Origin: Botryllus schlosseri
Taxonomy: Eukaryota
Assembly: GCA_051294905.1 (NCBI GenBank)
Contig: CM119372.1
Location: 28,274,001 to 28,338,000, forward strand
Direction: 5' to 3'
Length of the DNA: 64,000 nucleotides
Shown here: positions 28,101 through 51,207 of the stretch, piece by piece
Layout: each line of letters opens with the position of its first letter
Position numbering within the stretch: position 1 is the first letter of the stretch
Translations under genes and position numbers: made by a program
Notes under the pieces: model-generated
Database searches by the model: none
What the model saw: only the letters and a program-made list of their open reading frames with translations
Told to the model about the DNA's origin: nothing

Positions 28101-31100
28101 TCACTCGTTTGCTGTTGAGTATTTCTAGCAATTTCAGAGCAGTTCGGCAAAAATTCTTGAGTTCTACTTGAGAAGCAACACTGATTACTTTGCCCCTGCC
28201 TTGTGCCCATAACCTATCAGCGGTGCAACAGTGGAACATACCAATAACGAAGCACAAACAAAAAAAATTACAGAAATCATTTCCCAATAAGCGTTGAAAG
28301 ACAGCGATTTATTCTGTTTATCATCTTGATGCAATTATTAATATTTTATTGAAAGAGTATTGCCAGTCCTTTTTACTCTTAACAAGCTTTTCATGGTAAC
28401 GCAGTGGTTCCAAACCTGTGGTACGCTAAGGTCTTCCTGGTGGCACATGAGAAAATTATGTTTTTTCGACCGAAGGGAGTTATTAGTTCAGGTGGGGTTG
28501 ACTTTGAGATTTATGAGGCTGTCGTCATCGTGGGTAGGAGCAATCACACCAATGACAGGCGTACAGGGAAGAGATCTAGTCATAAAGCATTGGGATTCTT
28601 ACCTAACCAAGTTCCGTTTTAATATATTTGACCACCGGAATTACAAATGGAACCACTACAGAAATCATACTGTTCCTCAACACAGTGGAAAAAGTTTTGA
28701 TCGTCTTCGGCGCGCTTAACTTATGTAGGTGGTACGCGAGCGCTGCATACAACCTCGAAACGATACGTGGGTGAAAAAAGGTTGCGAACCAATGTTGTAA
28801 CGCAATCTTGTGACGATTTGAACTTACAAAATTACTAAAAAACTGAAAACTGAGAACAAAATAATTAGTAAATGACGTAGACCCAGAAAGAATGCCAAAA
28901 TCTCATTCAAAACTGGTATTCATGACTTTCCTGCTTAGCGCTCAGCATTACTGGGACAGCAGAGAGGGTGGAGAAGGCTTAGAAAGCCTCGCAAAGCTAT
29001 ATCTGCACCTTCCTTGTCCAGCGGCATATGCACATCATGCACTGAAAGTATGCATATTCAGATATCGTGTGTATGTAAATCACGAGTCGGTGTTTATGCC
29101 GCAAAAACATCTAGGACAAAAACAGTCTATGTCCTATTCCTACTCAATTAAGTATAAACACCAGGAACGATAGCTCGTTGGCGAACTACAGGTTCGAGCG
29201 CATCGGATGACACTAACCGTCCATTTGACGCCGGTGTTTGGAACCGGTCATCTAATGCATACAACTGCCGATCATTTCTTCCCTTCCGCCCGGCCTTTGA
29301 ATACAAATCCGGTTCTCTCTTCCTGTTACAAACTGGCGTCATGGTGGAAGCTTCTCGCGAAGGCGCTGCAAGTGGTCTGATGCATGAGCAAAACACAGGG
29401 TCCTAGCCCGCAGGGCACAGAACAGCCAAAAACGAGTATTTCATACCACATACTCGACTAACTCAGTCATCTAAAGTGGTCATTAACTCAGTAAAGGTGC
29501 GGGCCACTGTTGAGGCGTGGACTGCTGCGACATCATGAGACTGCGATATCAATGCTACTTGGCGTGGCTTCAGATTCACCCCCGATTTTTACAGGAACAA
29601 CACTAAAAGTGTTTTTTTGATCGAAATAGAAATATGTAATTTTGGATGTCTAGAGTTATTTTCTTAAAAAATATGAAATTTGGGTTAAAGTCTATGAATG
29701 CACAATTGCACATGATTTGGTCTTGTTCATTGCGGGTGTCATTGGTATTGAATTGGAAAGTCAATGGACTAAGTCATATTTCTATGTAAATCACACTAAT
29801 CTTGATATTTGGCAGAAATCATCTTTAAGGCATGGATGGGGCACTTGAGGTATGGGTCATTAAACAGGTTCACATATCGGCCAAGGCAAGTGAGTGCACA
29901 CTTATAATACCTGTCATAACACAAATACTCTACCTCGTGGTGTGCTGTTTGCAAATTTCTTTTCAATAAGACTACGATGGTCCTCTTCGCTTTTCAATCT
30001 CAGATTCCGTTCCTTCAAAACATCAACACACACAATTTAACGCAGTGTTCAAACATAAAACGACAATCATTCGGGCTGGGAATAAGCAGGCGAGCCAGCA
30101 TTGAACTTTAAATCATAGCTTGATAGACATCTCTCTATCATTATCACTACTGATTGATATCCATCAGCTTGTTCAATAACATCACCACGACAGTACTATC
30201 TGATTGACTAGTGAGAAACGTATCTGTTTGACATATCTCAAGGTATACCGCTGACGTCACTTCAATGCTAATAATTTCGTTGCCCATCCCAATTTTCTTT
30301 TTCATACCGCTAGCTGTCGATACTCCTAAAGATCAAAACGATCAAATACTAGCCGCTTTTAGCACTAACCGCCAGGAGTAATTCTTGTAGCAGGTTAATT
30401 TGTTTTTGCTGCTGCTGGAACATTTCCATCACCGAGTCGTTCATTCCGGCATCAGTCTTCGTTTCCGACACCCCAACCTTTTTGTCCTGCAGAGGTTAAA
30501 CAGTATTTCTACTTGACAGATTACTCATGCTCTGTGAGTACCGATTCACAATATAGCATGAAGTAGAAAATCCCTCAGGTACATAGCCGATAAAAGCTGA
30601 GCACCTCCAATGCCAACAAATAAGCCTATGTGTATTTTTTATGTTACCATATCAAATTGATAGCTCACACTCCTATCCATCATATTCAATTTAATCGGAG
30701 GTATCTGCAAAATGTATGTAATACAATATCAGACATTATTACCACACTGAGAATTCCAGTAGGCCTATATTTTGTTGTAAAACTTCATTTTATTTATTTA
30801 TTCCAATATTAATATATAGGACATATGATACGGGTAATCTAATATCCTCGTAACTTCTCGATTGCCTGTACCACCATGATAATTGGATATAGGTTCATTT
30901 AGGTATATACTATACTCAACTAGAAGTAGAAATTGATTGGAGTTGGCTATTTTCCAAATTACAGCGTATATCTTAGTGACTAATGCAACATGACGAATGA
31001 TACCACAAATTTGTTGCAAATTTCGAAAAGATACCCATTTGCCTTGATATAGGGGCTATTCCGCACAGCTCTCATGACAATGTCACTTATGAAAACGAGG

Positions 31101-34100
31101 GAAACATACCCCAACACTACTATCCAATTTACTAAAATTCAAATCGCAAGAAGCGTAGCCCAAGCAAGTGGTTTTGCCTGAAGGACTATTAAGTAGAATT
31201 GGATGTACTCCAAACACATAACCACTTGCGTGAACAGTGCAAGTGGGCCAAAACTAATTGAGTTCTTCGTTCAATCAATCGGTTTTATTAATATTTTCAT
31301 CATTTCAAAATACCACAAAACTGCGATACAATGAAAAAAGATAGGAAAGTGTCGAAACTTGTAGTAGAGTCTTTGGGATCAGGACACCCACCTTGGCCTA
31401 GGCCAGTGGTTCCCAACTTTTTTCGACTCATCGCCCCCTTTTCAAGCTAAACGCCACTCATCGCCCCCCAGATTTTGTGAACCGAAAAATCGGTATACAA
31501 TCCGGGTTGACTAAAAAAAAAAAAGGTCAATTTCTCGGCTCGTTGTCGAATTTTACACTTTTGCCACTAAATTTCCGTGGGTTGACTAAAAAAAAGGTCA
31601 TTTCTCTGTCTTCACTCCAATATAGCCGTTTTAACGCGTCATCGACTCTCTATCGCCCCCTTCGCTATTTTCGCCCCCTTTGTCCATTTTCGCTCCCTAG
31701 GGGGCGATATCGCCCACGTTGGAAACCACTGGCCTAGGCGAAGTACAGAAGAGGCATGCGCAGTGAATGAAAAGTAAAGCAGAGAATATAAAAGGCAAGC
31801 GACAAAATGAGGGGCATGTGGCGGAAGACGAGATCGATGTTACGTCGTGGTCCGGTAAACCTGAAAGCTGACCAGTTACTCACTACCTCTGACCACTTCT
31901 CTATGGGGTAACATTATAACATACACTACTAAAACTGACATACCTGTAAAACATCTTGTGGTGCTGACTCTGAATCTTCATCCATATCCGAATCACTCTC
32001 ACTCGAAGAACCATCAGTTTTCAAAGAAGTACAAGCAGGTTCGTCTTAACACAATTCACGACTCAGGGAATAGCTCACGAAATCATAAAATGAGATTCTA
32101 ACCTTGGTGCTTATCCAAACAAAAACCAAGCAGGTGCGCGGCTACCTTATTGAAATACGCGTCTCCATCGATTTCGTTCATCAGCCGTACGATACAAGAG
32201 GCTGTGTTTTCCCGTGAGAGAAGTTTGCGGCACTGTTCTGTTGAACGCATGACCGTATTGGGCAAGATATTGGTTTCAAACAACGCGGTACCTACCGGAA
32301 TCGTTGGCACACTTTGTTAGAATTGTCAACGCTTGATTCAAATGGCAAATCCCTAACGATCGTGCTGGATTGGATTCCGAGTTCAGCAGTGATATAAATA
32401 TTGAGAGACCGCCCAGTTTTTGAAATCTCGTGCAGTATTCGCCTTCAAGATATAAATACATCTGTTGGCACAAATTTGTGTCTCGGTAGCTTCAACACCT
32501 TATTCAACGTCCACTTACGAATTGATAATCTTATTGGTTCCACCGAATTAGCGTAGAGGGTCTAAACCAGTGCTTCTCAAACTTTTTTTAGACACCTCCC
32601 CGCCCCCGTTATGAAAGTGAACAATTTTGCGCCTTCCTTATCGTCATACCACAAAATGCAACCAGAATGCTAGCAATCCCAACATATAGTTTGATGGCAT
32701 GGAAGATTTCTCAAATATGGAATCCGCACTCTACTCAGAGAAATAACTATGAATTGTAGGTAAATCGTGCCGAACGCGAAAAAAGATTGTTGACCGCATC
32801 TTCGCGTCCTTCTTCAGATGCTTTCACGTTCCCCAAGGGGGCCTAAATGGTCACCGATGGTACTCAAGCACTTGGCTTTCTCTTCCATTTCATTACTATT
32901 GGTATACTTGTAGGCCAAGGTTGATTCGCTAATTTGTTTATTTAGAAATTCCATCATTTCCAGACACCGCAAGATTGCGAAGTGATGAAAAGATCGGAAG
33001 GTGTTGACGCATGATAGCAGAATGTGGTGGCTTTCCGGAGAAAATGGCTTGCTGACTGAATGTATGAGTCAAGCGAGATAGTGTAATGGCGATGCGTCCG
33101 GCTTCTCGATCAGTAGGTCGTGGGTCCGATTCCTGGCCGGGTCGGATTAAAGACTCGAAAACTGGTATCCGCAGCTATGCCGCTAGGCACTAAGCATTCA
33201 CAGACAGCATGGAGGAGACAAAAATGGGGGTGCATACTAGGTGACCATACGGTCATATCGCATCTCTGTAGTCAAAGCTTCTTGATGGTGCGGGCGAAAA
33301 ATAATATCATCTCACTCTCTCTCTCCACTGAAATTTACACCAGGACGATAAGCAATTTTTTGCTTCAATTAGTTAAGAGATTAAAATGAAAAAGCAGTCT
33401 AGAACAACGCATCGTAGACTTTTAATTGTTGAACGGCTGTGGAATTGGAGTCAGATTTGCGATTAGGAGTCTTATTGAGACAGCCAGGAGTGATTTGGGA
33501 TTTTAGTGCAAAATCTGAACACGAGGACATGAAGTGGAAGCAGCACCGTAACTGCCGCACCCCAAACCCCTAAATTGGGGGGGGCCCGAGCTCAAAAGGG
33601 GCCCCAAATTATTTCGTGAATTAGCATAAATTATAGAGTATTTTTTGAAAATGTATGCAATTTTTTCCAAAAATTTTCGCGCTGCGCGCGATTTAAAGCT
33701 GCCAAATATCTTCATTATTTGGTGCTCTTCCCCTAAGAAAAAAATGCAAGATTTATAGAAATGGACATATCGGCGTTGGCCATTAACACGCCACTACGCA
33801 CTAAGATATATAATGATTTAGGACTTATTGCATGCGACTCCAAGAAGTGTGCCAGAACGATCGGCAGCGCGAAAAGCTTGGCCGAAACGGACTGCCCTTA
33901 CGCAGACCGAAAACTTCGTTATATATACAAAATAATAGGTTTAATTGTCCATAGGCGCCTAAATGACTGGCGCCATATGTTGCTGTCTTGGCAATCTGAA
34001 CCTCAGAAGACAAATACCATCCAGCAGGAAAAAAATATATGCCAGTGAAGAAATACCAATTTGAAATCATGTGCGTCTTTTAGTTTAGTACGTTTGAGCG

Positions 34101-37100
34101 ATTCTATATTTTTGATATAGCAGACAGGAGGTCACGAAATAAAATCACGTTATGAAGTCATACCAACGGGTCCGCCCGCCCGAACATGTTTAATTAATTA
34201 TTATTTACGGGCCCTAAAGTTTCCGGTAAATCTGATAACGTGAGCAGAGAGGACGATATACTGATAGCAATATATATGCAATTCCCGATCTTATTGGCCG
34301 ATTGTATCATGACTTATCGAAAATTTTCGCGCTTCGAGCTGGCTCACTAAACAGTGAAGCTAATTTCTTGGCAAAAGCGAACACTGTGATGAGGGGTCGG
34401 TTAATCACCCTATGAGAACCCCAAACCCAAGTTTTTATGTGGGGGGGGGCTGACGAAGTGCTGTTTCGTTCCTGCCAACGGGAATACGGCCGAAGATGTC
34501 TAATTATTATTGGGCGGTCCTACGTTTTAAAACAGACTTCGCTCAGCTCTACCGGTAAATCTGATTACGTGAGCAGAGAGAGGCTCCAAATTGATAGCAA
34601 TATATATGTAATTCCCGATCATATTGCCCGATTACATTCTTGAATTACTGAAATTTTTCGCGCTTCGCGCGTCTAAGTGGGAAAAGCTGTGTCACCTAAC
34701 GGATATCCAATGGAGATGTGAAATAGCATAAAAAAAGCGGATAGCGAAAGGGGGGTCTGGTGGGCGAAGCCCCCCAGAAGTTAGGTTTATCACCCCATGG
34801 GGGGCCCGAAACGAACGTTTTGGGGGGGGCCTGACGAAGTGCTGTTACGGCCCTGAGTGGAAGACTTGGACAACTAGAAAATTTTCAATACCACATTTTA
34901 ATACACTGCTGCAAATATATGTCCATCACAAAGTAATGTCTTGCTGAAGTGAACTCTTTCTTCGTTACTAGTGAAGGCCTATTTCCTCTACCTCACCACT
35001 ATGCTATCTGTGTCAGTAAATATATACAATAAGGCATGGGCAAAAAAACATATCTCACCCTTATCGGCAATCAAACTGCTCACGGCTGTGATGATATTCC
35101 CCACAATTTCCGTTTCGCCGTGTCGACTTGCCCACGACTGTAGAAGGAGAATGAATACTTCCACCCCTCGTGCTTTGAAGGCAATACTCTGACAATGTTC
35201 TAAAATATGATATATCCGTATTGCTGTATATTGGAACGTTTAAATTCCACAATGCATCTACCACCCCCTGATTTGGTGCTTCGTACCACCAAGGGGTCTG
35301 TGGATCCTCAGTTAAGAACCTGTCATGTAGATGTTGTGGAATAAACAGTCGTGTTTGGATCACTTTGTCACACTTACTGAATTGAAAGTGTCATGACGAA
35401 GGGTGAATGATGACTTTGTATGCTGGCATGAGATTGAAACGCTTAAAATTGCGCCCATTTTAGTCACCATCAGTCATTTGCATTGGTATATTAGATGCAT
35501 CTTGCAATTTGAACTCTGTTACCTTTCTACTTTCACCTGAATATGGCACTTACTTGATCTTCATCAAGTCAAGTAGAAGGTACTTTACAGGTACGTTTGC
35601 ATAATTTTACAAGTGAAATCGTCATCACGACAAGCAATTTTACCCATAATATATCACAACAACAGAACACCATTTGGATCACATCACATTTATTTGTGGC
35701 ATCATTTGCCATTTCGCATTGGAAACAATGGTGAATCTTGCAATTTTGAAAGCTGTTACAATCTACTTTTGCAAACTACTTACTTGAATAATATTGAAAC
35801 CTTGTGCATTTGACTTTTACTTATGACATGTAATTATGCCATGAATTGAAAATCTATACTTCTACTTGTAACCAAGTAGAAATTTACAGTGTTGCATATA
35901 TGTGTTCTTGAGTAGCATGAATGACTACTTTGACTGGGTCCTACGATTGCCAACGTCCTGACTTCCATGTACTCGCGAAAGCTGATAGCCAACCGAATAT
36001 CTTACCGTTGTTTGAGACTACCGCAGAAAACAGCTGACAGGATTGCAAAATGACGTTCTTATCTCCCTTGGATTCGTATAAAACGGTAACGATATGCGGT
36101 ACGTATTGTGCGCATTGCCGCTGATTTTGCACTGAATTATATAGAAAAGTTAGCAAAAAGAACAAAGACAAATATATCTAATTTACCATTCTGCGGCAGA
36201 GCCAAAGAAAGTTTCAAGGCTTTGCACGATAAGAGCCAGAGGTCGCCGCCTTGTTTTTCCGCGGAAATTCGGCAATTGGATAAAAATTTTATTTTTTTCC
36301 TAAAAAAATCGATGATTATTACTGAGGTTATGCCTTGAACGGCATTGATTGCCTACATATATATTCGCAGGAGACTTTGCAGGCAGCCCGTAGTAAGCAT
36401 TAGGTCTTGTGCAGAAACTGTAAGTACAAAGCTTGATCAAAACACAGCTGCACTGCGAGCAAGTCGCTAAGGCTGTTCTCTGAAAAGTACACAAATCCAA
36501 CATGCTCATGCTCAGTAATAGGATGGAGTGAAAAATTTTGAATTTCAAAACGGACATTTGAAATGTGGTGCCAAATATCAAAAAAATAATTTCTATAATA
36601 ATTCAGGGCTCGTGCACCCTCTAGTGGTCATGCAATTTCACCGAACGTGCCAAAAATAGCTAATTTCGCTATATATTGATAGCCGCTTACGCTAGTAAGC
36701 TGATTTTGGGCTTAAAAGATGGGGAACCAACAGGCTTCTAACTCACTTCCACAGAGCCTTGTCTTAAAAATGAACGTAAGAAAGTTACAAGCAAATTATT
36801 GATTTTTAGACCGTTTTTCGGTAAAATTAGGCACTGAAGCAGTGGGTACGATGCCAAAAGCATGTAGTGATTGATCTTATGACTGACAACTCCATATTGA
36901 AAGCACATAAATTGCAAATCCATATTGAAAACACAAAAACATCAATTCTATATTGAAAAAAGATATCTTTCGAAGATGGTTTCACTACCAGAGTACCAGT
37001 CTGTACAAACTTTAAAATCTTGTTTCGTAACAAAGAATTTCATCTGCTTTTGAGACTTCAGTTTTTGTCTGATGAGGCCATCTCTACGCTTAAATCCCGA

Positions 37101-40100
37101 CACATGGGCAGATGTTTCGGTCACCACTTTAACGTCTCTTTCCACTGCCTGGTTGTGCCAAGGATGATTGAGCCATAATGGTGATTACCTTAGATTTTCC
37201 AGCTCGAGATATGACGAGTTTTTGATTGCTGGTGGCTGTTCCATATCTTTTAGATTCAAGTTGACAATTTGTTGGTATGATTTGGCTTTTATGTTTATAA
37301 TTGGGACTTTTACCAATCTGATTCTAGTGTCAACGTTGTTTTTAGGTTTCGGTTCATTAACATATATCCTAGTTCAAAGTCGCCAATTGCAATCTGGTAT
37401 TGTGTTTGATCTGCTGATAGTTGTAATCTTGATAACTGCAAGTCTTCTGAGGCCTTCATCATCATCACCGAGCATCCCCAGAAAAACATTTTCTGGATGT
37501 GCAAAATATGTCTTTAGTTGTAGCACAGATAGTGCAAGGTTACGAATTCGTGTATCGCAAAGCTTTGAAACATGGGAAACTATGTTGTAGAAGTTTTTAG
37601 CACCATCAACAATGGAATTGTGCATTTTTATTTCAAACCATGACGAAAAATAAACCTCCCCGCAGAGTTGAGCAAGATAGTTGAGATTGCTTGATGGATG
37701 ACTCTGCCGCGCATAGAACATGTCGAATTTTGAGGTTCTTTGTGAGACAGAGTCATCCATCAAGCAATCTGAACTATCTTGCTCAGTTCTACATGGAGGT
37801 TTATTTTCCGTCATGGTTTGGAATACAAATGCACAACTATGGACGACTCTGTCCCACATAGAACATGCCGAATTTTTAGGTTCTATGTGCGACAGAGTCA
37901 TCCCACAACTGTATAACAATTATACTGTGCAATATTGGAGTTAAGCTTTTGAATAATACCTTGCCTATTTATTACATCTATATTTATTACATTATTTAAA
38001 TGTACTATGAAGTTCTGTACTTGAGTAGGCTTAATGGACTTACTAATGCACAACGGTTAAACGGCACACACAGTGTATATTTATTGATTGTATCCAATCA
38101 GAAAAAGCAACAAAATCTTGCTAAAATGTCAAGACGATAGTTATAAGCCACTTTGCGTGTTATATTGCATTGTTCGAAATCCAGATTAACATATGAAACC
38201 TGAAATTGATGTTAAGAAATCACAACAATAGGCCAACATCACTCATGGATTCAAACAAGCGACAACGCCAAAGATAACCGTACCATTATCAGACAGAAGT
38301 GTCAGCAGAAAGTATATTGAGCAGAGTTTTGTCCGTTCGAGCACTACTTCACTGTCCAGCATTCCTTTGATGTTTTCGAAAAGTTGCTTGTTCGTCAAAT
38401 ACCTTTTGACGTTATCTGTGAGTAAATGTAGGGTTATATCCATTCCATCTTACAGTTCTAATCTAACATAATACTTTCGCAACCGATAAAGTTAACATGC
38501 TAATAAAGAGTATAATGCCGTAAATACACACTCCAATACAAATAGTGATCTCCAAATGACCCCTAAATGTATTTAGTAACTCAACATGTCCTGAATTGAT
38601 CTTAAATCATTATCTGCCAACCAACCAACAATGCGCTTACAGAATCCCCGCCGTTAGCAGACTCCTTTAAACAACTAATCAGCAAGACGCCACCGTTATG
38701 ATCATTGATGCGTAGCCGACGCTAGCCGTGATTTCGTGATTACTATTCTTGTTGCCGTTCTATGGTCGCTGGCACGCCCACTCGTCGGTAGCTACTTTCA
38801 AACGCTTTGCGACAAATCTTAACGACTTTCCTGTGAGCTTATTCCAGGCTCATTGCTGTTTTTTATCAATAATCTATAGAATGAGACATTGATACCCGTC
38901 ATTTTTGAGATTTTCCAAATTTTGGACAACCCTAGTGGTCATATTTGTTCAGCGTCACGAATTATGCAGCGACCATCGAGTATAACCAACAAGGTTGTAA
39001 TGACTCGACCCGAGTCACGATTTTTTGGTCACTCCATTTGACTCGAGTCATTTTTTCAAATGCGTATGATGACTCAACTCGAGTGAATTGTTGCATTGAC
39101 TCGACTTGTAATCGATTCATTGTGCATGACTCGAACCAATTCATATAAATCGAGGCTAAGACGGCCAAGACATTTTGACCTTGTAATTTTGAAGAATAGT
39201 AAAGTTACCACATTATTGGTATTTCGTATATCAGTCCTGATCCTTGGAAAATAGGGCCAAAAACTGTTAAGACTGAGGACAAATACGATATTATGAATGC
39301 CATCCATTCTATATTACTCGAGTAGAGTTGAAAAAGTGCGTTGAACCGGATTGAACTGAAAACTGAACAGTGAACATCATCGAGCTAGTACAACGACTTG
39401 GACTCGAATTCTAGTCAAAACACTGTGACTCGGACTCGACCCTCTACTAGCGGACTTGGACTCGGACTTGACTCGGTGGTGAATTGAAAATGACTCGACT
39501 TGACTCGAGTCAAAATCATAAAAGTGAGATGGACTTGTGACGCGGAACCTTGTGACGTGGTTACAACCCTGATACCCTCAATGGAACTTCCACTTGCACT
39601 CAGTATCAGTCAAGAAAAATATGCAAGGTGTACACTGTGCACGGCCACTGGCCATTCTGGAATTGCGTAAAAGTATTTCTGGCTATTGCAACTGGCGTAC
39701 CATAATCCAGGAGCTCAATCTCAAACTGTTCCATATCACTTGAACTGCCCACGTAAACTCAATAGGATTTTCAGCACTTCAGCAAGCCGTCTCACGACTA
39801 CACTCCAAGACAACCTAGCTCCGAGACGACTTCACCGTGTTAATGGGCTTAATGAACTTCTAGCCAGGGTTGCAATCCAGGTACGTTTTGTGCAATATAC
39901 TTTGTGTGGCAAGATAGTACCCAGTATCACACGGCCCAAAGTATGTGTAGTGAGTATAAACTTTGGTGTGCATGAGACACCGATTCCAGTGGCCTATAGC
40001 ATTATTTCAAACATGGTTATCTAGCTGAATTTAATTTCAACTTGTGGCATCAAAGGCAATTTTTAATGTCTCTGCAGGTTACACTGTTATTGCTCAGCAA

Positions 40101-41060
40101 TGATAGCCTGAACAACTATCATTCTTTATCTGTAATAAGTTTATTTCAACAAGAATTACTCACTGCTCATTTCGACTGCACAAGACAGTGTATATAGACA
40201 CGTTTGGCATACACCTGGATCGTTGGTCTTTTGATACAGTTCCCATATTGTGTCTATTCCACCAACTCTGTGCAAATTATCCACCCCTGCAATAGAAAGG
40301 TAGAGATTGCATAAACAGTGATTAAAATGTTTTTCAAACTTTAGGTGATATCACTACATAACATATTTAAATCGGTCTATGGACATTTGAGCATACAATA
40401 TAATAGCATACTTGCCACACTTCAGCATGTGACAATTGGGCATACGACACATGAGCATGTGGGTTAAATTTCGGGCTCGGGCCGGAGTGGAATTGATGGC
40501 AACGTCACGCGCAACTTTCCATTTAATCACATTATTATTCTATGCAAGAAAATCTTCTGTCACGCGCAACTTATTGCCAAAACAATCCACTATTTGCAGT
40601 CATGGGTTAGGGTTGGATTTGGGGTTAGGATAGGTTCATGGATTAAGGGTAGGTTTCAGCATCATGGTTCGTCGTTTTAGGGTTAAGCTATAAAGTGTCA
40701 TATGCTCAACTTTTCCTTGTGTGGCATGCTCAGATGTCGGGCATCCGATTAAATCACCTTATAGGCCCACTGTAGTTACACGAGTTCTTTTCATCAAAGC
40801 TCTGAAAATTTATACATTCTCTCGTCAACATTACCAGCATAGTACGGTAGCAATTTAATTTCGGCCGAGCTACAAAGAGCCTATAGAGCCCAAGGAATAA
40901 ACGCATCGTAAGCTGCCATACCATCTTCGGAACACATTACAGAAATCGTCTGTAAGCTGGTGATTTGGGCTTCGTAATTATCGGTCTCGTCGTCTCCTGA
41001 TTGCAGGAAATGAAGCAATACTTCGATATCATTCAAAGTTCCCTTCATTTTACAGTCCAT
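25104..41060 (-). CDS. TERB1: TERB1 (CCDC79)-like armadillo-repeat meiotic telomere protein; exons 41060-40922, 40286-40164, 38415-38284, 36417-36357, 36299-36187, 36131-36006, 35199-35059, 32442-32296, 32237-32103, 32044-31944, 30486-30370, 30325-30308, 30012-29934, 29365-29218, 27815-27647, [uncertain exons ~25850-25555], ~25510-25373, 25314-25283, 25160-25104
   Basis: The first 15 exons join in frame with GT-AG sites. Colinear similarity to human TERB1 as recalled: NDIEVLLHFLQ~TDLNLLLECLK, CLYTLSCAVE~ALYTLGAIAE, SAQDLMLTTGCL~TGQTLVRETGCI, LW..C..L...PQNVQNQ~LWSSVCSTL..PQNDENQ, NKVAAHLLGFC~NKAATFVLHNC, ICSDILEEEV~LCSDIINKEV. The 3' exons are less certain. Confidence 0.8.
27031..27548. mobile_element. 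GACTCGAGTC-rich MITE (inverted), preceded by a partial second copy at 26596-26940
   Basis: TSD ACTAAAAT/GCTAAAAT; both copies are preceded by the same flank TGGACCATGACTAAAAT. Confidence 0.78.
28402..28794. mobile_element. hAT-type MITE
   Basis: CAGTGGTTCCAAACCT..AGGTTGCGAACCAATG; TSD TGGTAACG/TTGTAACG. Confidence 0.75.
31404..31731. mobile_element. hAT-type MITE (CAGTGGTTCCCAAC TIR, TCGCCCCC subterminal repeats)
   Basis: Perfect TSD GCCTAGGC; inverted sister copy at 44295-44671. Confidence 0.9.
33070..33325 (+). mobile_element. tRNA-derived SINE, second copy
   Basis: A box TAGTGTAATGG, B-box-like GGTCCGATTCC, colinear with 20608-20861, ending in a (CT)n tail. Confidence 0.78.
33541..34855. 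mobile_element. Non-autonomous hAT-type element
   Basis: CAGCACCGTAAC..GTTACGGCCCTG termini; perfect TSD AGTGGAAG; internal duplication ~34222-34335 / ~34551-34665. Confidence 0.85.
36519..37905 (-). pseudogene. Truncated, frameshifted DNA transposase (hATm-like) in a TERB1 intron
   Basis: Minus-strand fragments YFSSWFEIK..YFAHPENVFLGMLGD and HNQAVERDVKVVTETS..RRDGLIRQKL match motifs recalled from hATm-type transposases. One candidate terminus TAGGATGGAG at 36519; the other end was not found. Confidence 0.75.
38990..39571. mobile_element. GACTCGAGTC-rich MITE copy
   Basis: CAAGGTTGTAATGAC..GGTTACAACCCTG; colinear with 10116-10627 and 63110-63692. Confidence 0.82.
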
Positions 41061-41389
41061 CTCTCAACGTTGACGCTTCTGAAAACCACTGTGATTCTAA
41101 TAGAATTCTCGGGAATTATATATGTTCATGTGAAACACAAAAAATAGCAGGGGCATCATGGTATTTTTCAGTTTATAATTTTTACCGGAATTCCTGAAAC
41201 CACTTGCCAGATTTTACAATATTTATTTTGTGGCAGGTTATCGGGATACCTGATCAAGAATGCGACTCAATCAGTAAACACAGGTGCCCAACTGTAACAC
41301 AGATTTGCAATAAAAATGGTTTGAAATAACTTAGGAATAAGAACAGACCAGAATCACAACCAGTTCAATGAAATATCGCGTTGATCAAT

Positions 41390-44045
41390 ACATAGACACA
41401 CTTGAATTTCCGACAAAATCGATACATATATAATTGAAGAATTACCCATGTTGGGACCCTAAAGGAAGATATTCAACCGCATCAGTGGACGTAAGTACCC
41501 CTAATAAAGAATTATTGACGATCATGAAGCTTCGGAATAACTCAGGAACAGAACAGAATCCAATCGAATTCGGTGGAATATCGCGTCGTTCAATCCAAAG
41601 ATACACTTGAATTTCCGACAAAATCGGCACATATATAATTGAAGAATTACCCATGCTGGGACCCTAAAGGAAGATATTCAACCTCATCAGTGGACGTAAG
41701 TACCCCTAATAAAGAATTATTGACGATCATTAAGCTTCGGAATGACAAAGGAACAGAACAGAATCCGAATGAATTCGGTGGAATATCACCTCGTTCAATA
41801 CATAAACAGACTTGAAATCCCGACGAAATCGATACATATATAATTGAAGAATTACCCATGCTGGGACCCTAAAGGAAGATATTCAACCCCATCAGTGGAC
41901 GTAAGTACCCCTAATGAAGAGTTGTTGACAAACAATAAGCTTCGGAATAACTCAGGAACAGAACAGAATCCAATCGAATTCGGTGGAATATCGCGTCGTT
42001 CAATCCAAAGATACACTTGAATTTCTGACAAAATCGGCACATATATAATTAAAGAATTACCCATGCTGGGACCCTAAAGGAAGATATTCAACCCCATCAG
42101 TGGACGTAAGTACCCCTAATGAAGAGTTATTGACAAACAATAAGCTTCGGAATAACTCAGGAACAGAACAGAATCCAATCGAATTCGTTGGAATATCGCG
42201 TCGTTCAATCCAAAGATACACTTGAATTTCTGACAAATTCGGCACATATATAATTGAAGAATTACCCATGCTGGGACCCTAAAGGAAGATATTCAACCCC
42301 ATCAGTGGACGTAAGTACCCCTAATAAAGAATTATTGACGATCATTAAGCTTCGGAATGACAAAGGAACAGAACAGAATTCGAATGAATTCGGTGGAATA
42401 TCACCTCGTTCAATACTTAGACACACTTGAATTACCGACAAAATCGATACATATATAATTGAAGAATTACCCATGTTGGGACCCTAGAGGAAGATATTCA
42501 ACCGCATCAGTGGACGTAAGTACCCCTAATAAAGAATTATTGACAAGAAATAAGCTTCGGAATAACTCAGGAACAGAACAGCATCCAATCGAATTCGGTG
42601 GAATATCGCGTCGTTCAATCCATAGATACACTTGAATTTCTGACAAAATCGGCACATATATAATTAAAGAATTACCCATGCTGGAACCCTAAAGGAAGAT
42701 ATTCAACCCTATCAGTGGACGTATGTACCCCTACTAGAGAATTAGTGACGATCATTAAGCTTCGGAATGACAAAGGAACAGAACAGAATCCGAATGAATT
42801 CGGTGGAATATTACCTCGTTCAATACATAAACACACTTGAAATCCCGACGAAATCGATACATATATAATTGAAGAATTACCCATGCTGGGACCGTAAAGG
42901 AAGATATTCAACCCCATCAGTGGACGTAAGTACCCCTAATAAAAAATTATTTACGATCATCAAGCTTCGGAATGACGAAGGAACAGAACAGCATCCGAAT
43001 GAATTCGGTGGAATATCGCCTCGTTCAATACATAGACACATTTGAATTTCCGACGAAGTCGAGACATATATAATTGAAATATTACCCCTACTGGGATCCT
43101 AAAGGAAGATGTTCAACCCCATCAGTGGACATAAGTACCCCTAATGAAGAATTATTGACAAACAATAAGCTTCGGAATAACTCAGGAACAGAACAGAATC
43201 CAATCGAATTCGGTGGAATATCGCGTCGTTCAATCCATAGATACACTTGAATTTCTGACAAAATCGGCACATATATAATTAAAGAATTACCCATGCTGGG
43301 ACCCTAAAGGAAGATATTCAACCCTATCAGTGGACGTATGTACCCCTACTAGAGAATTAGTGACGATCATTAAGCTTCGGAATGACAAAGGAACAGAACA
43401 GAATCCGAATGAATTCGGTGGAATATTACCTCGTTCAATACATAAACACACTTGAAATCCCGACGAAATCGATACATATATAATTGAAGAATTACCCATG
43501 CTGGGACCGTAAAGGAAGATATTCAACCCCATCAGTGGACGTAAGTACCCCTAATAAAAAATTATTTACGATCATCAAGCTTCGGAATGACGAAGGAACA
43601 GAACAGCATCCGAATGAATTCGGTGGAATATCGCCTCGTTCAATACATAGACACATTTGAATTTCCGACGAAGTCGAGACATATATAATTGAAATATTAC
43701 CCCTACTGGGATCCTAAAGGAAGATGTTCAACCCCATCAGTGGACATAAGTACCCCTAATGAAGAATTATTGACAAACAATAAGCTTCGGAATAACTCAG
43801 GAACAGAACAGATTCCAATCGAATTCGGTGGAATATCGCGTCGTTCAATACATAGATACACTTGAATTTCTGACAAAATCGGCACATATATAATTAAAGA
43901 ATTACCCATGTTGGGACCCTAAAGGAAGATGTTCAACCCTATCAGTGGACGTAAGTACCCCTAATAAAGAATTATTGACGATCATGATGCTTCGGAATTA
44001 CTCAGGAGCAGAACAGAATCCGATCGAATTCGGTGGAATATCCCG
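41390..44045 (-). repeat. 205-bp tandem array, about 13 units (left arm)
   Basis: Anchors recur every 205 nt (41449, 41654, 41859 ... 43909). Confidence 0.97.
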
Positions 44046-44294
44046 TTAGTCAATATATTAATACTTCAAGTTACTCCTACAACGTGATATGTACAATTCA
44101 TTTATGTTGTTGTACATGATAACTAACCAAATTGGCGCCGGCTTTGCATCGAACACAATTTCCTTTTTAAAACAGTTCCAAGAATATATAGTCTACTAGT
44201 TAGAGTATAGCGAAAAGTAACGATATAGCGTGTGAAATTGTGTTTCCAAATGTATAGGTGGAGGGGGGTATATTCAGTTTATTTTCGTCTACTC

Positions 44295-44671
44295 CAGTGG
44301 TTCCCAACGTGGGCGATATCGCCCCCCAGGGGGCGATTTCGCGGTCTAGGGGGCGAAAATAACGAAGGGGGCGAAAATGGGAAAATGGACAAAGGGGGCG
44401 ACGGGGCGAGAAAAGAACGAAGGAGGAGATAGGGGTGCGATGACGCGTCAAAACGGATGACCTTTTTTTTTCATTTAGTCAACCCACGGTAATTTCGTTA
44501 CAAAAGTGTGTCAAATTAGACATCGAGCCGAAAATTTGACCTTTTTTTTTAGTCAACCCGCCGGTGATTACAGTTTGTATGCCCAATTTTCGGTAAACAA
44601 AATTTGGGGGGCGATGATCGGTGTTGACCTTGAAAAGGGGGCGATGGGTTGAAAAAGGTTGGGAACCACTG
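44295..44671. mobile_element. hAT-type MITE inside the foldback core
   Basis: CAGTGGTTCCCAAC TIRs; perfect TSD GTCTACTC. Confidence 0.92.
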
Positions 44672-44935
44672 GTCTACTCCTTCGGTATAATTTACCAATG
44701 TAGATGAGCAGGCACCGTTGGTTGGATCACTAGACACCATTCTATCTAGGATTTCAGAAAACTTTGAAATATAGTCGCTCTTATGATCAAGTATAGTGCG
44801 GCGCGGATGGACAACTTCTCTGATATCTTGTCTTTTCAATTCGCTGGCCCTACTTCGGTCCAACTCTAAGGTCGGATTCTTGAAATGACAGTGATCCTGT
44901 CGTAAAACCCCGATATTATTCATTTACTCACACGG

Positions 44936-46442
44936 CAGTGTTGGGATCAAGTCACTACCTTCGAGTCACGAGTCATCTCGAGTCATTGCACATTTTGACT
45001 CGAGTCAAATTAAGTCAATCGATTTTCGAAGGTGACTTTAGTCAAGTCAAGTCACTCATTTTTTGGAGGTGGCTTGAGTCGAATCAAGTCGAGTCAAGTT
45101 AAGTCACGAGAAAAGTCACAATTCAACTCAAATTGACTTTTCGGAGTATGAGTGATAATTCAAAGTCATTAGCATCACTCGTTGCGTGAAAGACAGATTA
45201 ATTGAATTAAATTTGATTGAATCAAACAACGAATATAAATTTAAATACCTGAGTAACCGTGTAGCTGAATGCTACAGTCTGGTAGTATCAGCAGATCTAG
45301 GCAGTGGTTCTCAACCTTTTTGTCTCCGCGGACCCCCTTGAACCTGTCACAGACCCCCGCGGACCCCCAAGTTTTAGATCGGATTTAGCTCGATTATCGA
45401 GTAACCGTTATCTGCCTTGCCTGCAAATATCGACCTTATGCTATAGGGATCAAGCAACCAGAATGCTAACATTCCCAACGGATTGTCTGATAGCATGCAA
45501 GGTTATAGTTGTTGAAGAGAGATTTCTAAAATATGAAATCTGAAGTTTTAAGCAGAACAATAACTACCAATAGCATGTATATCGCGCGAAGCGTTAAAAA
45601 AATTTCAGTTCAGTGCAGCTTTGCGCCCCACTTCAGATGCTTTCACCTATCCTAGTTTGAGAACCAAAACAGATGAATGTGGAGGATTGCAAATACTACG
45701 AAATCACCGTGATGGACCTTACTACTTCCATTTTTTATTCTTTCCCCAAACCCCCACAAAACATTTCTGAACAGCAATATGTTTGTATCAGTAGGCTGTT
45801 GGAAATTAAATTGAGTTCGCGGTGTAGGTTATTTGATCTCCGACGGTCATTCTGATTATGTAAGTCATGAAGTTTTGGTAGTAATAAAGTGAAACTGCCT
45901 CGTGATATCCCTAATTAGAAAAAAATCCACCCTTTTGCAAATTTAGAGGTCTCGTGGACCCCCTGCAAATGCTTCGCGGACCCCCAGGGGTCCGTAGAGC
46001 CCGGTTGAGAACCACTGAACTAGAGGATCGAATAAGAATCCGCGAGAAGTGATACAAATTGATATTGTACAATACAATACCCATCTACACATACATGAGA
46101 ATACAAACGCATCAACATATTCGTTTGAATCAAACTATACAAGAGGGTTGGTAAAGAGAATCCCGGAGAATTTATTTGAGATGTAACAATGGAGGTCCAG
46201 TGAGAGGTACAAGTACAATCAGTGAATGACTGGTTGCTCTCAGGACAGTCACGAGTGACACCGGCGTATATCGAACAATCGTAACATATTTAAGATTAAG
46301 GGATTTAATCGATACTGGGTACTTGATGACTTGAAATTTACTCGTAAATTTTACTTCGAGTCACGAGTCAATCCACATTTTTGAAGGGCCGAGTCAAGTC
46401 AAGTCATATACGAAAAGGTTAACTCGAGTCATCCCAACACTG
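44936..46442. mobile_element. CAGTGTTGGGAT-TIR element (AGTCA-rich ends) with nested MITE 45302-46017
   Basis: CAGTGTTGGGAT..ATCCCAACACTG; perfect TSD TCACACGG; sister copy starts at 61632. Confidence 0.9.
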
Positions 46443-47499
46443 TCACACGGTGGTTTTGAATATTGATTGACACAAAACAAGCAGGAATTAAAAAAAATAA
46501 AGAACAACCCCAACCCTAATCTGAAATAGCCTAGCTATGTCAACTTGGACTTAGCATGTGGTTTATTTCTATGAACTGCTGTTCAATGCAACTATTGATG
46601 CCAGGGCGGAAGAGGATACGGCTGCCCTTTTCTTTGTGAAAAAGCACTGGTGTAGCTCCAATCCGGCTCCACCTCTGCGCTATCTCAGGTGTAAATTCAG
46701 GACGTGATACGGGGAGAGACATGTGAGGCACCGCGTGTGTATGGTTGGTACTTGCATGGCTGACCGGATAAGAATACCGAGTGCCGTAGGCTTTTCAAAT
46801 TTTCGAACAAAGTCGTTTTTTTATTGCTTTACTGAATTTTTATGATTACTTCTGTTCTTTTGGCTCACTTACGAATATTAATTTAATAATTTTTCCGCTA
46901 CTTTCAATCGTGCACTCACGCGAAATTTGTAGTAACACATTTTCGTTCTATCGCAGTCTCGTGGTCTTTTGATATGATGAAAGTTGCAATTATATGACTA
47001 TATCAGTGTAATCTGGTGCTGTTTCGACCATATACATACAAGAACAGAGCGTGATACGAATATTCATCGTTTGAATGATCCTGACAGTTATCCGATTGAC
47101 TGTTCAACGTTATAGGCCAGTAATTGATCGTTTACAACATTTGACCACCATTCACTACGCAATCGGCATATTAATTGTTCAGAAATATAGAGTGAAAGAA
47201 GAGACGAGACACAGTTGAGGAACAAACGAGCCCAACCTCCACCTGATTGCAGACGAAATTGTGTTCCCGCGCTGGTGATATCTAGGGCTGGGCACAATGA
47301 TTCGAGTACTCGAATCTGAATCGAGTATTAACTTTAATGATTCGAGTCGAGTAGTAAAAGACGATGTTTTCGAGTACTGAAATTATACTCTTCTCGCCAC
47401 TGCATGTTATTTTATTAGCGAAAATTGCAGTTTCAATACTATTTTCCAATCTGGAAGCCTTGAAACCTTGATTGGCCTATCGCAACGTACGAAACATAT

Positions 47500-49990
47500 A
47501 GTGTGTCTATGTATTAAACGAGGCGATATTCCACCGAATTCATTCGGATTCTGTTCCGTTCCTTTGTCATTCCGAAGCTTAATGATCGTCAATAATTCTT
47601 TATTAGGAGTACTTACGTCCACTGATGGGGTTGAATATCTTCCTTTAGGGTCCCAGCATGGGTAATTCCTCAATTATATATGTATCGATTTCGTCGGAAA
47701 TTCAAGTGTGTCTATGTATTAAACGAAGCGATATTCCACCGAATTCATTCGGATTCTGTTCCGTTCCTTTGTCATTCCGAAGCTTAATGATCGTCAATAA
47801 TTCTTTATGAGGGGTACTTACGTCCACTGATGGGGTTGAATATCTTCCTTTAGGGTCCCAGCATGGGTAATTCTTCAATTATATATGTACCGATTTTGTC
47901 AGAAATTCAAATGTATCTATGGATTGAACGACGCGATATTCCACCGAATTCGATTGGATTCTGTTCTGTTCCTGAGTTATTCCGAAGCTTAATGATCGTC
48001 AATAATTCTTTATTAGGGGTACTTACGTCCACTGATGGGGTTGAACATCTTTCTTTAGGGTCCCAACATGGGTAATTCTTTAATTATATATGTGCCGATT
48101 TTGTCAGAAATTCAAGTGTATCTATGGATTGAACGACGCGATATTTCACCGAATTCGATTGGATTCTGTTCTGTTCCTGAGTTATTCCGAAGCTTATTGT
48201 TTGTCAATAACTCTTCATTAGGGGTACTTACGTCCACTGATGGGGTTGAATATCTTCCTTTAGAGTCCCAGCATGGGTAATTCTTCAATTATAAATGTAC
48301 CGATTATGTCAGAAATTCAAGTGTATCTATGGATTGAACGACGCGATATTCCACCGAATTCGATTGGATTCTGTTCTGTTCCTGAGTTATTCCGAAGCTC
48401 ATTGTTTGTCGATATTTCTTTCATAAGGTCACTTACGTCCACTGATGGGGTTGAATATCTTCCTTTAGGGTCCCAACATGGGTAATTCTTCAATTATATA
48501 TGGGCCGATTTTGTCAGAAATTCAAGTGTATCTATGGATTGAACGACGCGATATTCCACCGAATTCGATTGGATTCTGTTCTGTTCCTGAGTTATTCCGA
48601 AGCTTATTGTTTGTCAATAACTCTTCATTAGGGGTACTTCCGTTCACTGATGGGGTTGAATATCTTCCTTTAGAGTCCCAGCATGGGTAATTCTTCAATT
48701 ATAAATGTACCGATTATGTCAGAAATTCAAGTGTATCTATGGATTGAACGACGCGATATTCCACCGAATTCGATTGGATTCTGTTCTGTTCCTGAGTTAT
48801 TCCGAAGCTTATTGTTTGTCAATAACTCTTCATTAGGGGTACTTACGTCCACTGATGGGGTTGAATATCTTCCTTTAGGGTCCCAGCATGGGTAATTCTT
48901 TAATTATATATGTGCCGATTTTGTCAGTAATTCAAGTGTATCTATGGATTGAACGACGCGATATTCCACCGAATTCGATTAGATTCTGTTCTGTTTCTGA
49001 GTTATTCCGAAGCTTAATGATCGTCAATAATTCTTTATTACGGGTACTTACGTCCACTGATGGGGTTGAATATCTTCCTTTAGGGTCCCAACATGGGTAA
49101 TTCTTCAATTATATATGGGCCGATTTTGTCAGAAATTCAAGTGTATCTATGGATTGAACGACGCGATATTCCACCGAATTCGATTGGATTCTGTTCTGTT
49201 CCTGAGTTATTCCGAAGCTTATTGCTTGTCAATAACTCTTCATTAGGGACACTTACGTCCACTGATGGGGTTGAATATCTTCCTTTAGAGTCCCAGCATG
49301 GGTAATTCTTCAATTATAAATGTACCGATTATGTCAGAAATTCAAGTGTATCTATGGATTGAACGACGCGATATTCCACCGAATTCGATTGGATTCTGTT
49401 CTGTTCCTGAGTTATTCCGAAGCTTATTGTTTGTCAATAACTCTTCATTAGGGGTACTTACGTCCACTGATGGGGTTGAATATCTTCCTTTACGGTCCCA
49501 GCATGGGTAATTCTTTAATTATATATGTGCCGATTTTGTCAGTAATTCAAGTGTATCTATGGATTGAACGACGCGATATTCCACCGAATTCGATTAGATT
49601 CTGTTCTGTTCCTGAGTTATTCCGAAGCTTAATGATCGTCAATAATTCTTTATTACGCGTACTTACGTCCACTGATGGGGTTGAATATCTTCCTTTAGGG
49701 TCCCAGCATGGGTAATTCTTCAATTATATATGTACCGATTTTGTCAGAAATTCAAGTGTATCTATGGATTGAACGACGCGATATTCCGCCGAATTCGATT
49801 GGATTCTGTTCTGTTCCTGAGTTATTCCGAAGCTTATTGTTTGTCAATATTTCTTTTATAAGGTCACTTACGTCCACTGATGGGGTTGAATATCTTCCTT
49901 TAGGGTCCCAACATGGGTAATTCTTCAATTATATATGTGTCGATTTTGTCGAAAATACAAGTATATCTATGTATTGAACAACGTGATATT
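47500..49990 (+). repeat. 205-bp tandem array, about 12 units (right arm, inverted relative to left)
   Basis: Anchors recur every 205 nt (47658, 47863 ... 49913); the unit is the reverse complement of the left array unit. Confidence 0.97.
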
Positions 49991-51207
49991 TCATCGTATT
50001 GGTGGTGATTCCGGTCTGTTCGTATTCCTGAGATATTTCAAACCATTTTTATTGTAAATTTGTTTTATAGTTGGGTACCTGTGTCTACCGATTCAGTCGC
50101 ATTCTTGATCAGATATCCCTTTAACCTGTCACAAAAAGCTATTGTAAAATCTGGCAAGTTGTTTTTGGAATTCTGGTAAAAATTCTAAACTGAAAAATAT
50201 CATGATGTCCGCGCTGTTTTTTGTGTTTTACCTGAACATATATAATTCCCGAGAATTCTATTAGAATCACAGTGGTTTCTGAAATGACCTTATATTTGCA
50301 TCCATAGATCATGATAAAATAACAACAGGGTGTAAATAAGCATTATGACGTCATCGCGTGAAATAATGAAGACGAATTTACTTATTCATTCATGTGATTA
50401 AGTGTGTTTCATTATAGAGATTGTACAATCGCTATAGTTTCACACTTTTTCACTTCTCACACATTTTACGAAAACGTAACGTAGCGGCACTGGTGTAATT
50501 ATTTTTATAACCCCGTTACAAAAACACCAGACATTTAAAAATGACCCTCTCGCAGTATTCCAGATTGTTTAGCACACAAGCAACTATTATTTCTGGTAGT
50601 TTGGTATAACGTGTGCATCGTCCAAAAACGAACTTTCTGTCACGTATATTTCGTAGCACCGGGTCAGATATTGATGATAATGCCGGATACCGGTATTTCA
50701 AGCGAAGCGGAACGATTGTCAAGGCAACCAGTAAAGTATGACGAGAAACAGCAGCAAACGATTGCTGTTGAAATTGACTGTACTAATAAATCACATGTAT
50801 AAATTCAATAACTCACTGCAGTAGGAGCTATTTGAAGTTCTAAATGACATAATTTAGTGGGAAGTAGGTTTCCCAACAGTATCCATTGCAATCGTGGTCG
50901 AGGAAAGAGGTAAATCGCCATTGGCTTAAAGGTTTCAGGGTTTCAACGCTTCAGAGTGATCGATACGGTTACCGTTGCGTTTTGCGGACGTAAAGACGTA
51001 GCTTCCTTTAAGCTCATAAATACATCTTTAATTCCGAAACAGTATTGTTGCATTACCAAATATGCCTATCAATTCACATACGGTATGCATCCGTAAAAAC
51101 CAACCGGATAAACTGTTGAATGTTCAATATTAATAGCTATCTCAACTATTATAACTGCAGTATTTATATTGGAATTTAGTGAGTTGTTTATTAAGATACT
51201 TTACATT

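Follow-up and report, generated by a model that had tools for sequence, protein, structure and literature searches.

A non-autonomous foldback element inserted directly upstream of a probable meiosis gene in Botryllus schlosseri

The locus and its genes

The window, i.e., the whole stretch of 64,000 nucleotides which was analysed, contains two genes in head-to-head orientation and, between them, a foldback element of 9192 bp (41085-50276), directly upstream of a probable meiosis gene (Table 1). This gene, termed TERB1-like here, is single-copy; all 15 introns are GT-AG with consistent phases, the splice between exons 3 and 2 having been inferred from one record of run X5. Its N-terminal half is of the ARM type and a terminal MYB domain is absent. 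Exon 5 matched ARM/KAP clusters at 0.94–0.95, which is a lead only, since ARM is not specific to TERB1. The homologues P0002 and P0003 (each 50% identical) begin with a methionine at about the same place as exon 1 and diverge at the same exon end. Searches with single exons of 34–46 amino acids as queries gave no match to a named TERB1, a PDB sequence search with exon 14 gave no hits, and metagenome scans gave no match to the locus. The gene is presumably TERB1, and its short C-terminal block appears to resemble the TERB2-binding region. The divergent gene matched Pfam Dynein_light with E 0.0028 (below the cut-off) and dynein light chain 10 in the PDB with E 0.013, and is presumably DNAL4. Of the neighbours named in the original prediction, an intact 16-exon ARM gene and a dynein light chain gene are thus present; the names TERB1 and DNAL4 are putative. 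The N-terminal ARM region is a likeness to TERB1, forms of which without MYB have been described for a number of invertebrate lineages (PMC7227075); the main text of that study makes no mention of tunicates.

The element is flanked by an exact 8-bp target site duplication (TSD), TTCTGAAA, and both flanks are single-copy; the insertion point lies 25 bp upstream of the start codon. The arms of about 2.8 kb, which contain arrays of a 205-bp unit, are 90.4% complementary, with a longest perfect run of 83 nt, and 12 AATAAA motifs occur on the minus strand of the element. A 9.2-kb foldback with an 8-bp TSD and arms of this length had been predicted, and the coordinates, the exact TSD and the complementarity bear this out. 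It also holds that the ARM coding region is cut off from its upstream region, the distance from ATG to ATG of the two genes being 10,148 bp in the filled and 948 bp in the empty state. The transposase gene has been deleted from the core: the ORF region of the C8 and C11 copies of the family is missing. The first nested element in the core, with ends presumably of the hAT type, occurs also in a sister copy, C4, and is absent from C8 and C11.

Table 1. Features at the insertion locus, with positions in the window
Feature	Position	Strand	Remarks
TERB1-like gene	25104..41060	-	manual model: 16 coding exons, 607 codons, no internal stop
Coding exon 1, containing the start codon	40922..41060	-	homologues P0002 and P0003
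Left TSD copy	41077..41084	+	-17 to -24 from ATG; minus-strand AG at 41080-41079
Left unique terminal inverted repeat (TIR)	41085..41340	+	256 bp; first 44 bp perfect versus right end; 88% overall
Left subterminal array	41341..44046	+	13.2 x 205 bp
Non-coding core	44047..47499		94–97% identical to left core part of full-length C8/C11 copies
Nested short TIR element	44295..44671		own 8-bp TSD GTCTACTC
Older nested short TIR element	45302..46017		present in C8 and C11 copies too
Right subterminal array	47500..49990	-	12.2 x 205 bp; inner side truncated at deletion junction
Right unique TIR	50023..50276	-	terminal 44 bp perfect versus left end
Strong donor-like site CAG/GTAAAA	50226..50234	-	45 nt inside right TIR; score 7.45
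Right TSD copy	50277..50284	+	AG at 50280-50279, native upstream context
Native intergenic region of head-to-head genes	50285..51207		presumed shared promoter (inferred); TGACGTCA at 50346-50353; weak GT at 50381
Dynein light chain gene, first two coding exons	51208-51282, 52450-52533	+	Pfam/PDB matches

The transposon family and its protein

At least 40 end matches belong to the family, among them 16 opposed pairs (2.7–24 kb) and 8 unpaired ends; seven of the paired copies in their interiors, and the unpaired ends on their far side, were read in part only. Of the 15 pairs examined, 12 had an exact 8-bp TSD, and these TSDs have no sequence in common; in the remaining three pairs the TSD was imperfect (C8) or absent (C6a, C4b). 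Arrays of the 205-bp unit were found in both arms of all nine copies examined, with 5–49 units per arm. In the C4 sister copy, each of the two unique TIRs shows 98% identity and the nested insert is present as well; since it possesses the same two arm types, the arm-to-arm divergence (88% identity) provides no date for the insertion. The C8 copy breaks the reading frame of an M17 aminopeptidase, so that simple gene knock-outs by this family occur in the present assembly.

Full copies encode a PHD-DDE-Ulp1-like protein, the closest relatives being Drosophila FB-NOF/Rehavkus and IS256-type folds. In copy C14, an open frame of 1362 codons showed weak PHD and C48 matches; the PHD finger of the family protein reached a Pfam E value of 0.0026, which is below the gathering cut-off. 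The top Atlas cluster was the NOF-FB 120.7-kDa protein (0.97; 220 of 256 features), whose members carry C48 (45%) and PHD (34%) domains; a second cluster with a MULE domain (0.85) is a lead only, and none of 14 genomic cores matched the Pfam MULE domain at E ≤ 1. Putative DDE and CxxH residues were conserved in the 14 genomic copies, D129, D199 and C245 being invariant and H248 and E463 present in at least 90%; the catalytic assignment of these residues is presumed. A predicted structure of the protein (pLDDT 78.7) came closest in fold to ISCth4 (Foldseek E 1.4e-5; VIA Z 13.0, rmsd 5.0, 267 aligned), which we take to be a member of the IS256 family, followed by the P element (VIA Z 9.8). A single-sequence AlphaFold model was unusable (pLDDT 35), and a PDB profile search gave a chance match only. 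Zisupton, which was weighed for its 8-bp TSD, was dropped because the family ORF pointed to NOF/IS256.

Judged by its sequence, the element upstream of the TERB1-like gene is a transposase-less, internally deleted and non-autonomous copy of a Rehavkus/FB-NOF-like foldback family of Mutator type. The family is a recently mobile, Rehavkus-like one with 8-bp TSDs, from an animal group in which such elements have been described only thinly.

Polymorphism and probable effect of the insertion

In X6, which is another sample from another study, a contig of 1433 nt at single-copy depth (79) matches positions 40497-41084 and leaves the match at the last base of the TSD; the remaining 851 letters are not TIR. 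Since the match ends exactly at the TSD, the insertion is probably polymorphic, and this supports, by inference, the empty site which had been predicted. The minor haplotype of X1 carries the X6 alleles at 41037 and 41046. The sequenced animal is probably heterozygous for the insertion; the depths of the X1 haplotypes are unequal, about 9 versus 3, a ratio which a simple heterozygote would not give. Among the X1 matches listed, no contig crosses 41084-41085, and the junction therefore rests on the assembly. Together with the difficulty of assembling long inverted arrays, this could suggest an assembly artefact; however, the exact TSD is flanked by single-copy sequence, the same architecture occurs with distinct TSDs at 11 other loci, and the unique deletion junction and the arm variants are common to a sister copy, which makes an artefact highly improbable.

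On the minus strand the TSD reads TTTCAG/AA, with the AG of the left copy 18 nt before the ATG at 41060; from this, a duplicated splice acceptor had been proposed. Scored with a matrix from the 15 introns of the TERB1-like gene model, the AG reached 4.9 in the right and 4.3 in the left copy, i.e., the top 7–9% of AGs in the window and mid-range among true acceptors. An AG of this quality is expected by chance in about 5% of random 8-mers when both strands are counted (2.6% per strand). Among the other TSDs, one of 11 contained an AG scoring at least 4.88, versus about 5% per site by chance; acceptor-like AGs are thus found in 2 of 12 TSDs, including the ascertained site. The second is that of sister copy C10, whose AG scores 7.2 and which precedes a GNAT gene by about 510 bp. 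Targeting of AG by the family was rejected, as the frequency of AG in TSDs is not above chance. P0005 is a genomic read-through of exon 1, which has a Lys codon (AAA or AAG) where the AG would lie. Run mapping covered 4 of 24 listed runs and the left flank only, with no RNA run listed for 38200-41084; none of the raw RNA reads of X23 (6% of the run) fell on the exons, and the X5 contigs left 41042-41112 uncovered, both being silent on the AG. The positions and the motif of the original prediction are correct, whereas the role as acceptor is putative.

The original prediction further envisaged a native 103-nt intron in the 5' UTR, with its donor at 50381, which the insertion would have converted into a self-folding intron of 9.3 kb ending at the left AG. 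GT and both AGs exist at these positions, but the donor scores only 0.8, a value equalled by 34% of GTs in the window and below 14 of the 15 true donors, and the right AG scores higher and is met first. Moreover, the sequence spanned by the proposed intron includes TGACGTCA, which in the empty allele is 86 nt away from the ATG and would fit a proximal promoter at least equally well, the role we presume for it. A splice from 50382 to 41078 is unsupported, and this model can hardly be upheld.

If splicing rescues the gene, the likelier donor is the site at 50232/50231 inside the right TIR, in a geometry known from introners. It belongs to the top 1.4% of GTs in the window, and its 9-mer is the same as that of the donor of coding exon 14. 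This donor, the identity of the family and the possibility of an outward promoter of the Mu type had escaped the original prediction. A transcript entering the right TIR could be spliced, in introner- or Ds-like manner, from 50232 to the left TSD AG (41078), with arm pairing joining both ends; 9.15 kb would be removed and 47 nt added to the 5' UTR. The score of the donor, the presence of CAG/GT at this position in 17 of 30 family ends and the 90% complementarity of the arms speak for such a rescue, as does the described combination of element donor and TSD acceptor (PMC11282704). Yet 13 of 30 ends are without a good donor, the splice is a predicted one, and 26 AGs on the minus strand of the element equal or exceed the left-copy AG in score, two of which (50189 and 50172) are within 60 nt of the donor; there are also the 12 AATAAA motifs, the pyrimidine tract of the left acceptor would sit within the perfect terminal stem, and the product would have an out-of-frame upstream ATG at -26 which overlaps the start. 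We regard this rescue as unlikely. Still less probable is the stronger claim of a giant self-pairing introner, in which the TIR donor and a captured TSD AG allow removal of the 9.15 kb, aided by the 2.8-kb stem, so that the meiotic gene survives, and in which acceptor-like sites close to the starts of genes may be preferred targets of the family (2 of 12 TSDs). If shown, such splicing between the TIR donor and the TSD AG would carry the introner mechanism, known from short elements, over to a 9-kb hairpin, and one could test directly whether splicing is aided by RNA pairing over a long range.

The AG could also be a natural acceptor for SL trans-splicing, and transcripts of the filled allele which cross the left AG would then give normal mRNA. 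In the 100 nt of native upstream sequence, A+T makes up 68% and T 41%, although A+T is near the local average. In Ciona, 5' UTRs hold about 60% of trans-splice acceptors, and the peak for outrons is near 100 nt (PMC11155486, PMC4691747); however, trans-splicing favours the first unpaired acceptor (PMC11155486, PMC1488885), and this would now be the right copy, at a distance of 9 kb from the coding region, while the left AG would find a partner in the TIR donor. A pattern made of a Ciona-type leader and a donor had 55 matches with at most two mismatches, versus 37 in the control, and no exact match. Trans-splicing at this site appears very unlikely.

No AG would be needed if an outward promoter in the left TIR, as in Mu elements, started transcripts just upstream of the ATG; the gene would still be expressed, perhaps depending on the silencing state of the element. 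The entire coding sequence is outside the element, and three other copies are located 0.5–1.3 kb from the 5' end of host ORFs reading away from them (GNAT, FMN dehydrogenase, NF-Y/histone-fold). For maize Mu, 20 of 33 alleles had outward-reading promoters (10.1101/2023.06.05.543741), but this precedent is from plants and promoter activity of the left TIR is only putative; in addition, the left TIR contains three upstream ATGs (41129, 41156, 41159) at most 100 nt from the start codon, and the native cis-elements are 9.2 kb distant. We consider such a rescue rather improbable.

Most likely, then, this is a commonplace insertion that damages the gene, with no novel splicing mechanism involved. 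A Rehavkus/FB-NOF-like copy with an internal deletion, presumably mobilised in trans, has landed just before the start of the single-copy TERB1-like coding region. Native-promoter transcripts would enter the 9.2-kb element, where poly(A) signals and cryptic splice sites are numerous, and long dsRNA could arise from them; the filled allele would thus be a null or strong hypomorph alongside an intact allele. The whole reading, i.e., a non-autonomous foldback insertion as a segregating null or hypomorphic allele with an incidental AG in its TSD, is held with moderate confidence. Among the four outcomes offered originally (a self-folding intron, bypass by SL trans-splicing, silencing through dsRNA, a null allele) the null allele is the most likely. 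The filled locus is a naturally occurring candidate for a loss-of-function allele, probably a segregating one, of a gene with a putative role in tethering meiotic telomeres. It is of use to specialists, who gain a mutant and a marker for genotyping, and is unsurprising otherwise.

Comparison with known systems

In the MULE/Mutator superfamily TSDs range from 8 to 11 bp (PMC6446971), to which the present family conforms with 8 bp in all its exact cases. Long TIRs are likewise found here (the 256-bp unique TIR plus arrays), and the autonomous copies are predicted to encode a DDE transposase of IS256/Mutator fold with a CxxH motif. Rehavkus, a group named in Repbase, is placed within or next to the MULE/MuDR superfamily (PMC6446971, 10.1101/2024.12.02.626372), and it shares long inverted termini with subterminal tandem repeats in varying numbers and, with full copies, a single long ORF with PHD finger and DDE core. 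The review table gives a TSD of 9 bp instead of 8 bp, hence the label "Rehavkus-like", and its hosts are arthropods and annelids only. The copy at 41085-50276 differs in being without ORF; the likeness is drawn from published features and not from Repbase sequences.

Besides the top Atlas cluster, Drosophila FB elements offer non-autonomous foldbacks with repeat-filled arms and long TSDs; FB4, however, has TSDs of 9–10 bp and TIRs of about 700 bp (PMC8277862), in contrast to the 8 bp, arms of about 2.8 kb and 205-bp unit described here. With introners the element shares a candidate donor within and an acceptor AG co-opted from the TSD, but these are short and recurrent at many splice-competent sites (PMC11282704), whereas splice-competent ends do not recur across the copies of this family. 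In the literature searched (Repbase Reports and subscription papers being outside it) there was no report of a multi-kb foldback spliced out via its TSD.

Insertion of MULEs in or near genes, with sequence preference absent, is known (PMC5225508). Alleles with maize Mutator in the 5' region (10.1101/2023.06.05.543741) and mosquito Muta1 (PMC5225508) resemble the present case in the insertion at the 5' end of a gene and in the TSD of 8–9 bp with no sequence preference. The arms here are far longer and capable of forming dsRNA; in those systems the usual outcome is a transcript which terminates in the element.

Structure and relatives of the element

The terminal inverted repeats (TIRs) of the foldback element are perfect over their first 44 bp; in each arm a unique part of about 256 bp is followed by an array of a 205-bp unit, with 13.2 copies in the left and 12.2 in the right arm. 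Aligned in register, the arms showed a complementarity of 90.4%; perfect runs reached up to 83 nt, and 32 of them measured at least 21 nt. Both flanks are single-copy in the assembly.

With the left end as query at least 40 matches were obtained in the same genome, which yielded 16 opposed pairs of ends, spanning 2.7–24 kb, and 8 unpaired ends. Among the 15 pairs with both flanks read, the 8-bp target site duplication (TSD) was exact in 12, imperfect in one (contig C8) and absent from two; family TSDs are 68% A+T, otherwise without a common sequence. Eight other copies, read whole, contained 5–49 units per arm.

Positions of features (window positions, unless a contig or assembly stretch, L, is named)
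Feature	Position	Strand	Remarks
Foldback element	41085-50276		9192 bp; bounded by two copies of TTCTGAAA
TSD, left copy	41077-41084
TSD, right copy	50277-50284
Nested insert	44295-44671		also in C4 copy
TERB1-like gene, manual model	41060 to 25104	-	16 coding exons, 607 codons
Decayed transposase fragment, 220-bp palindrome	36560-37900	-	intron 3 of TERB1-like gene
F-box/LRR gene	21931-23106	+	single exon; Pfam F-box-like, E 8.8e-13; convergent with 3' end of TERB1-like gene
Presumed MED14-like (Mediator subunit) gene, long exons	11607-14405, 18850-19599	-	one unusually large 2.8-kb open frame
Near-perfect inverted repeat (small foldback/MITE)	55966-56588		296 bp, 31-nt loop, 95%; in dynein light chain gene intron
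Minimal family copy, L050	C14:8024860-8027538		2.7 kb; two arms only (5 and 6 units), hardly any loop; exact TSD
Open frame of 24-kb C14 copy	L032:291-4379		1362 codons
C8 copy	9.81-9.83 Mb; L034:1-198, L029:1757-3010		21.6 kb
C10 copy, L015/L026	C10:18760011-18779046
Copies L010, L022	C12 20.44 Mb, C11 26.76 Mb		adjoin or sit within other Rehavkus-like transposase genes; related families nested

The long C14 frame gave weak matches to PHD (E 0.0026) and C48/Ulp1 (E 0.0084), both below the Pfam cut-offs, and its top Atlas cluster was the NOF-FB protein (0.97). In 14 genomic relatives, D129, D199 and C245 of the core fragment did not vary, whereas H248 and E463 were almost invariant; Pfam MULE matched 0 of these 14. 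The structure model built from this alignment (pLDDT 78.7) had ISCth4 as best fold match (E 1.4e-5; Z 13.0, rmsd 5.0, 267 aligned), with the P and Hermes transposases ranking below. This PHD-DDE-Ulp1-like frame is the best candidate for an autonomous driver of the family. The C14 core as query produced 90 matches; they belong to several related families, and many of them lack stops.

The element in the window is a non-autonomous Rehavkus/FB-NOF-like foldback MULE. Its core comprises the left 3 kb only, 94–97% identical to the C8 and C11 copies, and the transposase gene is lost. The C4 copy is 98% identical to it at both unique TIRs; since both contain the nested insert, their sub-lineage was mobile after gaining it. 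The data show transposition by a MULE-type family, an internal deletion, and insertion at -25 of a gene which is intact and present once.

The adjacent gene and probable polymorphism of the insertion

All introns of the gene model are GT-AG and no internal stop is present. The start codon at 41060 is supported by two unnamed homologues (50% identity each): both have their initial Met at about this point, and in both the alignment breaks off where the exon ends. Exon 5 appears ARM-like, as a lead only. We take the gene to resemble TERB1; named TERB1 was absent from the matches in homologue searches with its exons. From this resemblance, and considering that invertebrate TERB1 may be MYB-less, the identification is probable. 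Absence of the MYB domain from several invertebrate TERB1 is reported in an excerpt of PMC7227075. The divergent neighbour is a dynein light chain gene, with an ATG-to-ATG gap of 948 bp without the element.

In the RNA run X5, a 195-nt contig equalled exon 2 exactly and another of equal depth (25.2) stopped at the exon 3 edge; some animals therefore splice transcripts of this gene. The latter contig had a non-reference base at 38403, an unspliced contig the reference base, too thin for an allele-specific call.

Four of 24 listed sequencing runs were compared with 38200-41112, which takes in 28 nt of the TIR. Run X6 comes from a different sample and a different study, and its depth is even, at about 79. 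One of its contigs, 1433 nt long, matched 40497-41084, the match ending on the last TSD base, and its 851 further letters did not continue into the TIR. X6 thus appears to carry the empty site, for which the original prediction had suggested looking in the other haplotype or other individuals; a match that stops exactly at the TSD is as expected of such a site, the site itself being deduced from the contig. In run X1, possibly the assembly's own sample, contigs identical to the reference had a depth of about 9; a minor haplotype, with a depth of about 3, has the same bases as X6 at 41037 and 41046. None of the contigs listed crossed from the flank into the TIR; an assembly artefact is nevertheless highly improbable. 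Polymorphism of the insertion is partly established. The stretch 38200-41084 is itself highly polymorphic between samples (X6, for instance, has 20 differences in 588 bp, besides 6 gap positions).

Candidate splice sites and predicted expression of the filled allele

As stated in the original prediction, the TSD contains an AG on the minus strand, 18 nt upstream of the ATG. The RNA of the runs compared did not reach this candidate acceptor. Scored with a matrix from the 15 introns of the gene, which is small and gives rough values, its right copy reached 4.9 and its left 4.3, within the top 7–9% of window AGs and mid-range for true acceptors, whose leave-one-out scores extend from -2.8 to 10.9. 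An AG of at least 4.88 is expected in 2.6% of random 8-mers per strand, and was found in one of 11 other exact TSDs (C10, 7.2), within chance. The candidate donor at 50381, which in one option of the original prediction would allow the 9-kb element to be spliced out as a self-folding intron, scored 0.8, below 14 of 15 true donors, so that this model is very improbable.

In the right TIR, 45 nt inwards, lies a strong donor missed by that prediction, CAG/GTAAAA (7.45, top 1.4%); CAG/GT occupies this place in 17 of 30 family ends. Splicing from it to the left TSD AG would follow a known introner geometry (PMC11282704, in part), but would need to bypass 26 acceptors that score at least as well, together with 12 AATAAA, and the product would keep an out-of-frame ATG at -26; we regard it as unlikely. 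Still less likely is trans-splicing of a putative SL to the TSD AG: the first unpaired acceptor, favoured in this process according to sections of PMC11155486 and PMC1488885, is now the right TSD copy. An outward-reading TIR promoter, with a precedent in the available text of 10.1101/2023.06.05.543741, is somewhat less doubtful than either, yet improbable.

For 28 further ends of the family, the 95 flanking ORFs of at least 75 aa were searched against Pfam. Host-type ORFs adjoined four copies, namely GNAT (C10a), FMN dehydrogenase (C10b), NF-Y/histone-fold (C16b) and M17 aminopeptidase (C8); three further matches are probably other transposons. As observed counts, these agree with the genic insertion bias of MULEs reported in part of PMC5225508. 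The C8 copy, with its transposase frameshifted (900 + 440 codons), interrupts the aminopeptidase coding region; the family thus leaves unrescued knock-outs in the assembly, and therefore the window insertion needs no rescue mechanism. The GNAT acetyltransferase ORF lies about 510 bp downstream of the C10 copy, on the same strand; it is presumably RimL-like and might be of bacterial origin.

We consider it fairly probable that, after insertion of the internally deleted copy at -25, transcription into the element would lead to termination or mis-splicing, possibly with dsRNA formed from its transcript, leaving the filled allele with no or strongly reduced expression.

Introners combine a donor in the element with an acceptor from the TSD, as described in portions of PMC11282704; the present element has matching candidate sites. 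It is set apart by its 8-bp TSD from published Rehavkus, for which 9 bp are given in the part of PMC6446971 available.
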